Of a stretch of DNA of 64,000 nt, positions 364 to 4,784 are shown piece by piece. The notes under the pieces are model-generated. The model was not told the origin of the DNA and searched no databases. It was given only the letters and a program-made list of their open reading frames with translations. The stretch is from contig OZ223265.1 in the NCBI GenBank assembly GCA_965140585.1, positions 64,001 through 128,000 of the forward strand, written 5' to 3'. Origin of the DNA: Spirochaetia bacterium (GTDB lineage: Bacteria; Spirochaetota; Spirochaetia; UBA9216). How positions within the stretch are numbered: position 1 is the stretch's first letter; each line of letters opens with the position of its first letter. A program made the position numbers and the translations under genes.

Positions 364-1446
364 TTACTTCTTGAATTGCCTGGCAAGTTTCGCAATGTTT
401 TTCCACTTTTCCTTCTCTTCCCTGGCAAGTTTTTCATCTGTTCTTCTGTTCAGATACCGTATTTCCTTCTGAAGACTCAGAAAACTGTCATACCTGCGGG
501 CATCAAGCTCGCCGGCAGCAAGTGCAAGCTGAACGGCACAGCCCGGTTCAGCCTGATGTGAACAGTCGCTGAAACGGCATTCAGAGGCAAGTTCAAGGAT
601 GTCCTGAAAGGTCTCATTAAGCGAATCCTCGCCAGCCCATAACTGAATCTCTTTCAGCCCCGGAGTATCGATAAGTATAAGCCCCGATGGCAGCAGAAAC
701 ATCTCACGGTGTGTTGTAGTATGTCTGCCGCGCAGATCCCCCGCTCTGGGAGCGGAAGTCCTCTGAAGATCATTCTCAAGCAGGTAGTTAATTATTGTGG
801 ACTTTCCTACCCCCGACGGCCCGGTTAGCGCTACAGTAGCCCCCGGCTTTACAGAGCGGGCAAGACTGTCCAGTCCCTCACCGGTCACTGCACTTATCGG
901 ATAAATATCAACTCCGGGCGCCGCATTAAGCGCCTCGGCAATCACCTGCTCGCGGTATTCATCGCTGCACAGGTCTGCTTTGTTCAGGATAATAACAGGG
1001 ACCGCACCGCTGTTCCAGGCAAGCGTCACGTAACGCTCCAGACCTCCGGATGTATAGTTACGCCCTCCGTCCAGTCCGAAAACAAGAAATATTACATCTA
1101 TATTTGATGCAACAATCTGCTCGTCTGTACGGGCGCCTGCGGTCTTTCGTGAAAATTTTGTCCTCCGCGGAAGTACATGCTCTATGACAGCAGTTGATTC
1201 TGACGCAGGTCTGAAAGCCACCCAGTCTCCTGTAACCGGAAAATCAGAGGGCACCGCGGTTCTGTATTTAAAAGAACCGGAGACCTCTCCGATAAGAAAA
1301 TTATCAGCTGCCTCCTGCTCAATATCGGCAATCGTATAGATATGGCGGCTTTCCTTTACAACACGGCCCGCATGCAGGCCCTGCTCCCTGAAAGGAGCAT
1401 ATTCTTCTTCAAGGAGGCTGTTCCAGCCCCATTTGAAATTATTCAT
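364..1446 (-). CDS. rsgA: RsgA-family circularly permuted GTPase (long paralog type)
   Basis: NKADL, GPSGVGKS, GRHTTT, DTPG and Zn-finger CRFSDCSHQAEPGC motifs; start moved to 1446 (GGAG SD). Confidence 0.93.
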   Translation of the reverse strand: MNNFKWGWNSLLEEEYAPFREQGLHAGRVVKESRHIYTIADIEQEAADNFLIGEVSGSFKYRTAVPSDFPVTGDWVAFRPASESTAVIEHVLPRRTKFSRKTAGARTDEQIVASNIDVIFLVFGLDGGRNYTSGGLERYVTLAWNSGAVPVIILNKADLCSDEYREQVIAEALNAAPGVDIYPISAVTGEGLDSLARSVKPGATVALTGPSGVGKSTIINYLLENDLQRTSAPRAGDLRGRHTTTHREMFLLPSGLILIDTPGLKEIQLWAGEDSLNETFQDILELASECRFSDCSHQAEPGCAVQLALAAGELDARRYDSFLSLQKEIRYLNRRTDEKLAREEKEKWKNIAKLARQFKK

Positions 1447-1813
1447 ATTTACTTCTCCATAACTGCTCAACTGGAAACGGAAGCATTGAAATCGGCTTTA
1501 CAGCCAGTTTCAGAAGCATAGCATCATTATCATCTCCCGCAATCCTGTTAAGGCGGATAAATCCGCACATAATACATCTGTGAATGACAGACCATTCTCC
1601 TGAAGGTCTGCACCAGATTGAAATCGGCTCCATTAATCCCCTGCAACCGCAGCGTCTGTCTCCCTTTTTTAAATCAACATGGAGACTGTACAGGCAGTGC
1701 GGGCAGTGATTACGATGTTCTCCCCCGTATTCGGGAGGACTTACTGCGTTTCCGCAGTTGCTGCATATAAAAGTTTCATGATACTCAATATTATTCTGGA
1801 TAGATCTCGACAT
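1439..1813 (-). CDS. RNHCP domain protein
   Basis: FICSNCG...HRNHCPHCLYSLHVD...GDR..CRGLM...HRCIMCG...NRIAGDDN signature; overlaps rsgA start. Confidence 0.9.
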   Translation of the reverse strand: MSRSIQNNIEYHETFICSNCGNAVSPPEYGGEHRNHCPHCLYSLHVDLKKGDRRCGCRGLMEPISIWCRPSGEWSVIHRCIMCGFIRLNRIAGDDNDAMLLKLAVKPISMLPFPVEQLWRSKYE

Positions 1814-1923
1814 ACATTCCCTTTTAAAGATTGAGATAAATGTACGTGATGTCCTGTTCGATTAGAAATTTAGTTTTAAAAAGATTTTTCCGGAGGGATG
1901 CTTAGACTGGTGTTTTAAAATTT

Positions 1924-1977
1924 TCAGCAGTCAAAATTTCCCTGAACAGGAACATCTTTAACAACAATATCCAACAT
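1924..1977 (-). CDS. Putative leader peptide MLDIVVKDVPVQGNFDC
   Basis: Strong SD GAGGAGG at 1983-1989, ATG 1977, TGA 1926-1924; first ORF after the promoter. Confidence 0.7.
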   Translation of the reverse strand: MLDIVVKDVPVQGNFDC

Positions 1978-2008
1978 TAACGCCTCCTCAGGTAATTTAA
2001 GATAATTA

Positions 2009-2037
2009 AATATATGTGCATATTTAAAAGCTGTCAA
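2009..2037 (-). promoter_or_regulatory. Sigma70-type promoter of leader-RNHCP-rsgA operon
   Basis: TTGACA-17 nt-TATATT on minus strand. Confidence 0.75.
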
Positions 2038-2039
2038 GT

Positions 2040-2768
2040 TCAATCTGTGAGAAGCCGGTACAGTTCAGCTTCGATAGCCATGAGTTTCGGATGATCCGGA
2101 TTTCGTTCAGATATTTTCAACGGGTTTTCAATGATCTTTCTGATGACGGCCGGGCGTCTTCCCGACAGAACTATAATTTCATCGCCAAGAATCAGCGCCT
2201 CATTGATGTCATGGGTAACAAAAACTGCAGTCCGGTTATCAGCCGTCCAGAGCTTCAAAAACAGACTGGTCAGTTCCAGCTTAAGACGAAGATCCAGAGC
2301 CTGAAAGGGTTCATCCATAAGTATCATGCCGGCGGGGTAAGCAAAGGCTCTCGCAATAGCAACACGCTGACGCATACCGCCGGAAAGTCTTGTAGGATAG
2401 TATTTTTCAAATCCCGACAATCCAACTGCGTGAAGAAAATAGGCAGCTATTTCCCTGCAATCTTTCGGGGAGTGATCGACTTTTAACACAAGTTCAATAT
2501 TCTGCATTGCAGTCCGCCAGGGAAGCAGCCTCGGCTCCTGAAACAGATAGCTTTTACGCTTCGATTCAGCACCGACTTCAATATTTCCTTCCTGCGGCAG
2601 AAGAAGTCCGTGAACAAGATTCAGAAGGCTGGTCTTACCGCATCCGGAAGGACCGAGTATCGCGGTAACTGATGATGCTTTCAGATTCATGCTGAACCCA
2701 CTGAATATAGGCTCTGTGCTGCCCGGATACCTAAAACTGACATTTGAAATCCTTACTGCAGCATCCAT
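2040..2768 (-). CDS. NitT/TauT-family ABC transporter ATP-binding protein
   Basis: GPSGCGKT, FQEPRLLPW, LSGGMRQR, MDEPF, FVTHD. Confidence 0.93.
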   Translation of the reverse strand: MDAAVRISNVSFRYPGSTEPIFSGFSMNLKASSVTAILGPSGCGKTSLLNLVHGLLLPQEGNIEVGAESKRKSYLFQEPRLLPWRTAMQNIELVLKVDHSPKDCREIAAYFLHAVGLSGFEKYYPTRLSGGMRQRVAIARAFAYPAGMILMDEPFQALDLRLKLELTSLFLKLWTADNRTAVFVTHDINEALILGDEIIVLSGRRPAVIRKIIENPLKISERNPDHPKLMAIEAELYRLLTD

Positions 2769-3529
2769 CAGGCACCTCCCCTGATAAATCCTGCCGAAAT
2801 GAAATCAAGTATTTTTTCACTCAGCCAGCTTAGAATAATTGCTGTCAATGTCCAGGCAATAACCTCGGCAGTTTCAAGGTTCATCTGGGCAAACTGCATC
2901 CCGGAACCTATAGCCCTTACCGGCTGGCTTAAGACCTCAGCTGCAATTACCGATTTCCAGGCGACACCCACACTGGCCCGTACACCCGAAAGAATAAAAG
3001 GAACCACCGATGGAACAGTTATATGCAAAAGAATGTCCCGGGAGGAGAGCCTGAAGACCTGGCCCATCTCAATCAGTGCCGGGTCAATGCTCCTTATTCC
3101 TTCGGTTACATTAGCAGTTATTATTGGAAATACCATCAGAAAACAGACAAAAACCGGCACCATATCCGTTTTAAACCATATCATAGCCAGTATTATAACC
3201 GACATCACAGGAACAGTTCTGATTATGGTTATTAAAGGCGAAAGAGCAGAATTAATAGTCCGGTTTGAGCCGCAGGCTATTCCGGTTACGAAGCCGGCAG
3301 CAAATGAAATGAGAAATCCCAGCAGTGTTCTCAGCGCTGTATTGCCTACGGCTTCATGGAATTCAGCCGTAACTGCAATTTCCGAAAGCCTTTTTATAAC
3401 AGCTTCCGGTGCAGGAACAATGATGGGAATATTTATTCTGACCGCAGCAAGCTTCCATATTACAAGCAGAACCGCAGCGGTCAGAATTCCTGGTATAAGT
3501 GTCTTTTTACTTGAAGTAAAAGCCTTCAT
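2768..3529 (-). CDS. NitT/TauT-family ABC transporter permease
   Basis: Hydrophobic, EAA-like loop, WKSVIAAEVL..GSGM; likely start MKAFTSSKK at 3529. Confidence 0.9.
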   Translation of the reverse strand: MKAFTSSKKTLIPGILTAAVLLVIWKLAAVRINIPIIVPAPEAVIKRLSEIAVTAEFHEAVGNTALRTLLGFLISFAAGFVTGIACGSNRTINSALSPLITIIRTVPVMSVIILAMIWFKTDMVPVFVCFLMVFPIITANVTEGIRSIDPALIEMGQVFRLSSRDILLHITVPSVVPFILSGVRASVGVAWKSVIAAEVLSQPVRAIGSGMQFAQMNLETAEVIAWTLTAIILSWLSEKILDFISAGFIRGGA

Positions 3530-4490
3530 CAGGCAGGGAGCCTCCAAGGGATACTGGATCAAGTTCCATGAACATTCCAAGAAAATCAACTACATCAGCC
3601 ATTGCATCCTGTGCAGATATATACTTTATACCCGTAAGAGGAATTGCGCTCGCAGCAGTTGACGCAGCCATTATACCGTATTTCTCTATAACCTGCCCGG
3701 CGGCCTTTGGATCTTCAAGAACCCAGTTAATTGAACGCTCAAGCGCTGCAGAAAGGGCTCTCGCCGCTTCGGGGTTTTCAACAGCAAGACGGGGGCTTAT
3801 TACAAAGGCTGTAAAAGGAAAGGCTTGCTCCCCTCCCCTTAAATCTTTGAGTTCTTCCTGTGGGTCCAGGACATTTTTTACTGCGGGATTTTTCATTCCC
3901 GTCTGCATAACAAAGGGCTGCGGAATAAAAGCAGTATCAGCTTTACCGGCAATCAGCAGCTGGGCGACCTGCGGAGCCTGTGCTGTGAAATCAAGAGTAA
4001 CATCACGATCGGGATTAAGCCCGTTCTTTTCAAGAATATACCTTAGCAGGTAGTCGGGGGTTGCACCCTTTCCTGTTATATAAATCTTTTTTCCTTTTAG
4101 ATCTGCCCAGTCTTTTACGTCCGGATCCGATGAAACCATGTACAGTGAGCCGAGTCCGCTTACAGCGGCAAGTTTAAAACCGGGCCCCTTTGAATAAAGC
4201 TTTGCTGCAGTATTTACCGGCAGAAATACACCATCGGCCTGTCCGCTTGTCATTTTGGCTATCGCTTCAACAGGCGATGATACAATTATGTATTCGGCCC
4301 GTACTCCGTAGCCTGGCTGAAAATTCTCATTAAGCAGCCCTGCGGCAGCAAAACCTGAAGGCCCCTTTAAAGCAGCCACTGTCACTGTAATATCCTCGGC
4401 AGCAGCAGGCAGAACAGCTGCCGCAGAAAGAACTGCAGTCAGCAGAACAGTGAGTATTACTTTCTTAATACCTGTTTCTCCTCGTGTCAT
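3507..4490 (-). CDS. NitT/TauT (SsuA-like) ABC substrate-binding protein
   Basis: Signal peptide, VAALKGPS, DLKGKKI..GKGATP, PQPF motifs. Confidence 0.88.
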   Translation of the reverse strand: MTRGETGIKKVILTVLLTAVLSAAAVLPAAAEDITVTVAALKGPSGFAAAGLLNENFQPGYGVRAEYIIVSSPVEAIAKMTSGQADGVFLPVNTAAKLYSKGPGFKLAAVSGLGSLYMVSSDPDVKDWADLKGKKIYITGKGATPDYLLRYILEKNGLNPDRDVTLDFTAQAPQVAQLLIAGKADTAFIPQPFVMQTGMKNPAVKNVLDPQEELKDLRGGEQAFPFTAFVISPRLAVENPEAARALSAALERSINWVLEDPKAAGQVIEKYGIMAASTAASAIPLTGIKYISAQDAMADVVDFLGMFMELDPVSLGGSLPDEGFYFK

Positions 4491-4511: not shown

Positions 4512-4784
4512 TTATTCCGGTTCAATCGTTTTGCTGATACCGGTTTTAACAGTTACCCCGTCAATTCTACCGAGTTTACCTGTAAATGCACCTATTTCGT
4601 CTGTATTGGCATGGAGGATAAGAGTAATTATTGAAAGTTTCCCGGTATCTATATTAGGAAGGCCCATTCGGCCCATTATAATAGTAGAAAATTCAGAAAT
4701 TATCTGCTGCACGGCAGATGCACTTTTTTCCCGTTCCTGAATTATAATTCCGGTAAATGCGTATCGTTTTTCCGACAGGCTCAT
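4512..4784 (-). CDS. TM1266-family (iron-only hydrogenase system) putative regulator, ACT-like fold
   Basis: GIII...VQQIISEF...IMGRMGLP...IGAFTGKLGRIDGVTVKT. Confidence 0.85.
   Translation of the reverse strand: MSLSEKRYAFTGIIIQEREKSASAVQQIISEFSTIIMGRMGLPNIDTGKLSIITLILHANTDEIGAFTGKLGRIDGVTVKTGISKTIEPE

Follow-up and report, generated by a model that had tools for sequence, protein, structure and literature searches.

Layout of the RNHCP-rsgA locus and its leader

The window analyzed here is a stretch of 64,000 nucleotides (nt) from a Spirochaetia bacterium (assembly GCA_965140585.1, contig OZ223265.1, positions 64,001 to 128,000), which carries on its minus strand an operon for an RNHCP-domain protein and a paralog of the GTPase RsgA, here called RsgA2. 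The rsgA2 ATG overlaps the RNHCP stop codon by 8 nt, and a gap of 226 nt (2039-1814) separates the RNHCP gene from the ATPase gene upstream of it. In this gap, an original prediction made from the letters of the window had placed a promoter, a short upstream open reading frame (uORF) and an attenuator-like RNA, read together as a sensor of stalled ribosomes. That the gap holds a conserved, uORF-bearing cis-regulatory leader of the RNHCP-rsgA operon is borne out by 46 loci of Spirochaetota, and the comparison of sequences supports it as a real regulatory element. The elements of the leader and the operon are the following:

2009..2037, minus strand: sigma-70-type promoter (-35 TTGACA 2037-2032, 17-nt spacer, -10 TATATT 2014-2009)
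1983..1989, minus strand: Shine-Dalgarno sequence (SD) of the uORF, GAGGAGG
1924..1977, minus strand: uORF of 17 codons plus stop, MLDIVVKDVPVQGNFDC (ATG at 1977, stop ending at 1924)
1944..1956, minus strand: 5' arm of helix P1 (arm 1, segment 1), GAUGUUCCUGUUC, with one bulged U, in uORF codons 8-12, beginning 21 nt after the A of the AUG
1894..1943, minus strand: helix P2, AGGGA..GACUG (1943-1928) with CAGUC..UCCCU (1909-1894), pair probabilities 0.84-0.96
1862..1891, minus strand: joining segment, about 27 nt in most orthologs, the counterpart of a conserved ACAGAAAAUCUC block of other genera
1848..1859, minus strand: 3' arm of P1 (arm 2, segment 2), GAACAGGACAUC, about 85 nt downstream of the 5' arm
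1839..1847, minus strand: anti-start segment ACGUACAUU, directly 3' of arm 2
1808..1826, minus strand: translation initiation region of RNHCP (segment 3), with SD-like AAGGGA 1823-1818, AUG 1813-1811 and codon 2 UCG
1439..1813, minus strand: RNHCP-domain protein, 124 amino acids (aa), zinc-ribbon (Pfam PF12647, 121.6 bits versus a cut-off of 24)
364..1446, minus strand: RsgA2, 360 aa (PF03193, 151.3 bits versus a cut-off of 30; TIGR00157, 152.1 versus 100)
358-324, minus strand: terminator-like hairpin 3' of rsgA2

All predicted sequence elements, among them the near-consensus promoter and the strong SD with its 17-codon uORF, lie where they had been placed. The promoter shows 11/12 matches and ranks first among 8 promoter-like sites in 5 kb, a number of sites that is not above that in shuffled sequences (7.8 +/- 2.3), and the transcript would start near 2002. 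Across orthologs, 31/38 leaders have a promoter-like site with at least 9/12 matches some 30-36 nt ahead of the uORF AUG, with a mean best score of 9.45 versus 7.92 in shuffles. We observe no terminator-like site between 1814 and 2040 in the window leader, and P1 is not followed by a U tract.

With respect to RNA structure, the window leader was described by its minimum free energy (MFE) fold together with ensemble pair probabilities. P1 (12 base pairs, 1956-1944 with 1859-1848) is part of the MFE fold at probabilities of 0.99-1.0, save one pair at 0.5, confirming both the pairing that had been proposed and the overlap of the uORF with one arm of a conserved helix. P2 contains the final uORF codons and the stop codon, and the joining segment can form a weak hairpin, P3 (GGAAA 1891-1887 with UUUCU 1868-1864, probability 0.4-0.5). 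The anti-start segment (1847-1839) pairs with AAUGUAUGU (1818-1810) and thereby covers the RNHCP start (probabilities 0.87-1.0, last pair 0.6), in agreement with the suggestion that it can mask this start codon. Two further proposed pairings have probability 0 in the window ensemble, namely an extension of the P1 stem through GGAAAUUU/AAAUUUCU and a pairing of CAUCCCUCC with the uORF SD; the partner of UCCCU is instead AGGGA, immediately 3' of the arm, and the proposed anti-SD of the uORF is actually the 3' strand of P2. Taken as a single sequence, the fold of the window leader is unremarkable (z-score of -1.62; 14/200 shuffles fold as well), and the case beyond chance therefore rests on comparative evidence. 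We also rejected the idea that the RNHCP start is unusually buried, as 22% of 149 other genes of the contig are at least as buried.

Distribution of the leader

RNHCP genes were found at 22 loci in 21 of 61 related genomes, with rsgA2 adjacent at all 22 and a short open reading frame (ORF) upstream at each; RNHCP comes first at 17 of these loci and rsgA2 at the other 5. The same uORF start, arm and downstream partner also lie upstream of 11 further loci. A covariance model of P1 only, R1, was built from 12 leaders and matched 19 of 151 genomes sampled from the class, as well as 9/11 genomes of the window's order, 19/38 of another order and 4/6 of a third. The covariance model places the same leader at 46 loci of Spirochaetota, and 43 of the 45 R1 matches inspected lie directly 5' of RNHCP or RsgA2. 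Within the window's genome R1 is single copy, and it finds no leader before the housekeeping rsgA. One R1 match (L091, E value 0.043) was discarded as a terminator-like hairpin. In other classes of the phylum, RNHCP-rsgA2 loci carry recognisable leaders with compensatory arm changes.

Scanning 185,579 species genomes for an exact pattern returned 22 stretches, 9 of them real leaders and 13 chance matches within coding DNA. The leaders come from records of Spirochaetia, Spirochaetales and Oceanispirochaeta, together with one SAR324 and one "Deltaproteobacteria" metagenome-assembled genome (MAG). In these two MAGs (L054, L067) the leader stands together with the operon, an occurrence that could be due to transfer or mis-binning; the L067 leader is nearly identical to those of two loci of one spirochaete family (L119, L120). 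With respect to known RNA families, a search of window positions 1300-2600 against Rfam 15 at E values up to 10 gave only junk (at most 20.8 bits), and the leaders of 13 orthologous loci gave nothing at the gathering score. Likewise, the literature searched yielded no paper dealing with the biology of RNHCP or with a leader of rsgA, and no publication is known on mRNA-level control of accessory RsgA paralogs.

Several individual loci deserve mention. Just upstream of one leader, an Rfam group II intron domain was recognized on the minus strand (L031:1721-1791, 47.6 bits versus a gathering score of 40). Genome G005 holds two RNHCP-rsgA2 modules (L022, L005), one with a class 1 leader and the other with a divergent leader, whose uORF reads MSVLISGWNR and whose own SD-AUG spacer GGACAU can pair with AUGUCC of RNHCP. 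Leaders also persist beside decayed cargo, with RNHCP reduced to its first codons (L074, L087), degraded (L041) or lost along with rsgA2 (L093).

Covariation of the two helices

In the 46 aligned leaders, 96.4% of the P1 cells are paired and 7 of the 12 pairs show compensatory changes, while none of 500 shuffles reached as high a value and slid registers were 35-45% paired. P2 begins at AGG directly after arm 1 and ends in an "AUCCCUC" block, and its distal part clearly covaries; native P2 duplexes have a mean energy of -11.4 kcal/mol versus -8.8 for cross-locus combinations, with 0/5000 permutations as low. From P2 to arm 2 the distance is 25-28 nt in many leaders, and the segment between them often reads ACAGAAAAUCUC. 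The interior of P1 as a whole ranges from a tetraloop (L090) to more than 200 nt (L049).

Two other candidate pairings were tried in the same way and rejected. An extension of P1 through uORF codons 2-7 with the anti-SD segment gave a native value of -3.5 versus -4.0 for permuted pairs (4841/5000 permutations as low), and a helix between the anti-start segment and the uORF SD/AUG region gave -6.0 versus -6.27 (4267/5000). The permutation method thus returned a negative outcome for both of its negative controls.

Conservation of the uORF

In all 46 leaders, the frame set by the AUG has no stop up to the midpoint of arm 1, compared with 18/46 and 35/46 for the other two frames. Ortholog uORFs have 11-18 codons, and their SD contains GGAGG in 41 leaders and GGAG in 45. 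The geometry is equally regular: the arm follows the AUG at 20-21 nt in 44/46 leaders, and the uORF stop falls from 1 nt before to 17 nt after the end of the arm (-1 to +17). In footprint data, an initiating ribosome protects the mRNA up to about +15 or +16; combined with the distance of 20-21 nt, this places the beginning of P1 just past a ribosome positioned at the start codon.

The peptide is less constant. The uORF frame crosses arm 1 in phase 0 in 29 leaders and in phase 2 in the other 17, indicating that the arm is conserved as RNA and not as peptide. Three C-terminal peptide types (DVPVQ, MFLF and GVLF) lie over the arm, the C-terminal half of the peptide is not conserved, and we found neither an RLR-type arrest motif common to the uORF peptides nor conserved diagnostic codons. 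What the orthologs appear to keep is a uORF whose ribosomes run over the arm, as we infer from frame and spacing. The comparison of orthologs that had been proposed as a check of the original prediction thus upholds the uORF frame and the covariation of P1, but not the anti-SD pairing or a conserved peptide over the arm. Conservation, helices, covariation and uORF geometry are what the leaders show.

Complementarity of segment 2 to the RNHCP start

When the 3' half of the leader is folded alone, GGACAU of arm 2 closes on AUGUCC, that is, on the RNHCP start and codon 2, in the MFE structure of most RNHCP-type loci. Inside this GGACAU:AUGUCC helix lies an anti-SD:SD helix whose sequence varies between genera; the segment that is equivalent to ACGUACAUU pairs with the SD in other genera and covaries with it. 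Duplexes between the anti-start strand and the initiation region are more stable in their native combinations than across loci (-14.8 versus -12.2), and the same holds for the variable inner part of this duplex (-7.4 versus -5.5), with 0/5000 permutations as low in both cases.

Codon usage follows the same pattern. RNHCP genes use TCC as codon 2 in 30 of 31 cases, yet just 16% of their remaining Ser codons are TCC. The window's genus departs from this with TCG, and there a distinct anti-start segment lies 3' of the arm. At loci that have no RNHCP (L046, L047, L092), arm 2 reads GGACUCC and matches the SD of rsgA2, and arm 1 has changed in step. Furthermore, the 5 loci with the order rsgA2-RNHCP carry a leader that is unrelated in sequence and has the same three-segment layout, with a uORF of 14-19 codons ending in UCACAGGG, a middle segment UCCCCUGUGA and an SD ACAGGGGA.

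Predicted effect of masking arm 1

We masked arm 1 as a ribosome would and computed the opening energy of the RNHCP initiation region (-18..+12). The opening energy rises by a mean of 1.8 kcal/mol; it goes up by more than 1 kcal/mol at 24 of 37 loci and falls by more than 1 at 2 of them. Masking the uORF start instead gives a mean change of -0.2. With a narrower region the mean is +1.2 and 19 of 38 loci rise by more than 1, and the other leader classes respond with 0 to +7.5 at 9 of 9 loci. Since masking of arm 1 closes the downstream ribosome-binding site in these predictions, ribosome passage over arm 1 probably represses the operon.

Operon products and neighboring genes

RsgA checks the decoding centre late in 30S assembly. 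The window's genome holds another RsgA elsewhere (309 aa, 30% identical to RsgA2), so by sequence the window gene is a second, divergent accessory paralog. For the RNHCP protein, an AlphaFold model (predicted local distance difference test, pLDDT, of 78.7) contains zinc-ribbon-like CxxC pairs and a small beta-barrel; compared with the PDB it found no fold at E values up to 0.001 (best 0.11), and the ESM Atlas gave no usable match. We also observe RNHCP proteins that come without RsgA and without the uORF leader in one genus (L098-L117; genus g163, family f56), where the frames are longer (176-203 aa). Among 14 control genomes, RNHCP is found in Deinococcus radiodurans only.

Upstream of the leader, the window encodes an ATP-binding cassette (ABC) transporter, followed further upstream by a putative regulator gene and a second strong promoter-like site:

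2040-2768, minus strand: ABC transporter ATPase
2768-3589, minus strand: ABC transporter permease
3507-4490, minus strand: ABC transporter binding protein
4512-4784, minus strand: TM1266-like putative iron-only hydrogenase system regulator, directly upstream of the transporter, which is of the NMT1/phosphonate type
4896-4868: second strong promoter-like site

A proposed three-segment switch and its alternatives

Taken together, we read the leader as a translation-coupled three-segment RNA switch that would be closed by ribosome passage over the uORF and de-repressed when this flux collapses, a reading to which we give an even chance. Segment 1 would lie inside a strongly initiated uORF, and segment 2, complementary to it, would find in P1 its stronger partner. 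In most orthologs, segment 2 and the nucleotides just after it are also complementary to segment 3 and could therefore pair with the RNHCP SD and start. With no ribosome on the uORF, P1, stacked on P2, would hold segment 2, and the RNHCP initiation region would be more open. A ribosome elongating across segment 1 would melt P1 and free segment 2, which would then complete the hairpin over the RNHCP start and shut the translation of RNHCP and, through the overlap, that of the coupled rsgA2. The operon would accordingly stay low during normal translation. De-repression would set in when uORF flux collapses, either where initiation-competent 30S subunits are scarce or where ribosomes are held at the start codon, as the leading edge of a ribosome at this position would stop just short of P1. 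Translation inhibitors could induce the operon provided that they prevent initiation or arrest ribosomes on or close to the uORF start. The sign of regulation, the translation of the uORF and the physiological signal are what we infer in this scheme.

A number of observations weigh against this reading. The window's own leader shifts by just +0.5 to +0.9 kcal/mol upon masking, a small effect that arises because the anti-start segment, which lies outside arm 2, coexists with P1; codon 2 is UCG there. The RNHCP start is predicted to be partly buried in both states, with an opening energy of 9.07 (about the 78th percentile of the 149 other contig genes), and the leaders of class 2, at 5 loci, are a poorer fit, shifting by 0 to +1.4. 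In addition, the arms are far more conserved than pairing needs, suggesting that something else, for example a protein, may read them as well, and the switch does not account for the conserved uORF N-terminus M-x-x-[IF]-[VA] or the ACAGAAAAUCUC block. The energies are equilibrium predictions that include neither ribosomes nor kinetics, and the orthologs are related, so that the permutation counts overstate independence.

The excess conservation of the arms leads directly to one alternative, in which P1/P2 is an operator for a protein (RsgA2, RNHCP or a ribosomal protein), perhaps by mimicry of a 16S site, which sets the balance between P1 and the sequestor or blocks the uORF, leaving the uORF as a read-out and not a sensor. 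The arms with their conserved bulged U are nearly invariant across genera in which RNHCP is just 50-65% identical, and the RNHCP model, with zinc-ribbon-like CxxC pairs and a small beta-barrel, would be compatible with this. A test for an rRNA-mimic operator found a single 9-nt identity between arm 2 plus its preceding base (1848-1860) and the 5' strand of helix 24 in the genome's 16S rRNA; however, this match has an E value of about 1 and does not extend. Distant classes retain the layout with wholly different arm sequences, and the leader core is unchanged where RNHCP has been lost, which makes an operator rather unlikely. The same stacking of P1 on P2 creates a long duplex that could chiefly govern how stable the mRNA is or how it is processed, for instance if RNase III cut P1/P2, or the uORF peptide itself could be the product, in keeping with its conserved N-terminal residues. 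Without any switching of the start, neither version accounts for the covarying anti-SD:SD helix, the TCC bias at codon 2 or the recurrence of the layout in a leader class of unrelated sequence, and the C-terminal half of the peptide is not conserved; we regard both versions as very unlikely. The interior of P1 (P2, the joining segment and P3) has the three-way junction, the conserved ACAGAAAAUCUC block and, in many genera, the constant spacing of about 27 nt that one might expect of a metabolite aptamer in a riboswitch with the uORF as expression platform. Yet this interior shrinks to a 4-nt loop in L090 and exceeds 200 nt in L049, conservation peaks in the helix arms and not in the junctions, and there is no Rfam match, so that an aptamer is barely credible.

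An attenuator of the ermC/cat type would share most parts with the three-segment switch and differ in its sign: a ribosome stalled within the uORF, by an antibiotic or an arrest peptide, would melt the helix, expose the RNHCP start and induce the operon. This is close to what had been originally proposed, and it draws on a short SD-led uORF overlapping the 5' arm of a conserved helix, on a hairpin that holds the RNHCP start, on the conserved N-terminal uORF residues and on the precedent of hflXr, an accessory ribosome factor of Listeria that is induced in this manner (PMC6310831). Against it stands the topology. The uORF arm pairs with the anti-start strand and not with the start itself, and freeing this strand is predicted to close the start (opening energies rise by more than 1 kcal/mol at 24/37 loci and fall by as much at 2/37); segment 2 and the anti-SD segment are contiguous, and no ermC-like 2:3 pairing that frees the start is possible. 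Furthermore, three C-terminal peptide types, two arm phases and no common RLR-type motif are difficult to combine with an arrest peptide. We therefore find this type of attenuation clearly unlikely and do not favor the ribosome-stalling sensor modeled on ermC or hflXr, as the leader has no terminator, the peptide over the arm is not conserved and arm masking closes the ribosome-binding site.

Comparison with known leaders

The ermC and cat/cmlA leaders are translational attenuation leaders. Like these, the spirochaete leader has an SD-led leader ORF that overlaps a helix arm and no terminator, and control would act via access to the downstream SD and start. It differs in having three segments, whereas ermC has four and cat two, and in that the uORF arm pairs with an anti-start strand. 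The predicted sign is also inverted, with a ribosome over the arm closing the start, and there is no conserved arrest peptide over the arm. Trp-type attenuators and the mgtL leader work at the level of transcription termination, with specific codons serving to sense charged tRNA or proline/Mg2+. Similarly to these, unimpeded translation of the spirochaete leader would correspond to the OFF state, with alternative pairings of a middle segment deciding the outcome, but the target here would be the ribosome-binding site. Compared with metabolite riboswitches, the spirochaete leader has no aptamer core of fixed architecture (interior from 4 to more than 200 nt).

Among published systems, erm leaders are described in PMC11264731. 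The Listeria hflXr leader rli80 attenuates transcription, using an intrinsic terminator and a 14-aa ORF that contains an RLR motif (PMC6310831). Both rli80 and the spirochaete leader are uORF leaders before an accessory paralog of a ribosome-associated GTPase that exists beside a housekeeping copy; the spirochaete leader differs in lacking the terminator and the RLR motif and in serving another GTPase family. In Streptomyces coelicolor, one of two RsgA/EngC paralogs is induced with tetracycline through WblC (PMC7157823), which makes a response of an RsgA paralog to translation inhibitors plausible by analogy. The WblC/WhiB7-dependent paralog thus resembles RsgA2 in that one RsgA paralog would be tied to translation stress; in contrast, control in S. 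coelicolor is exerted by a transcription factor, itself encoded by a gene with a uORF attenuator, and not by a leader of the rsgA mRNA (PMC7157823). The spirochaete leader matches no Rfam family and is not described in the literature searched.

Implications

Going one step further, and tentatively, since we consider it possible but doubtful, the leader may be a meter of ribosome flux. Its uORF, with very strong initiation, would report the number of competent ribosomes that start and run. Once this flux collapses, whether because 30S subunits are immature, because of cold or because drugs pin ribosomes to start codons, a decoy of the start region within the uORF would capture the anti-start strand and so turn on a GTPase that serves as a back-up in 30S maturation, along with its zinc-ribbon partner. 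In Spirochaetota, at least two leader classes of unrelated sequence would have acquired or retained this logic, and a stress-inducible RsgA2 would be a general counterpart of HflXr.

If the switch proposed here is true, a second RsgA and an uncharacterised zinc-ribbon protein would be tied to ribosome traffic, which would provide a handle on the purpose of this module as well as on how cells sense translational capacity. Its design, in which a start-region decoy inside the uORF competes for the anti-start strand, would extend the repertoire of ribosome-mediated attenuators.

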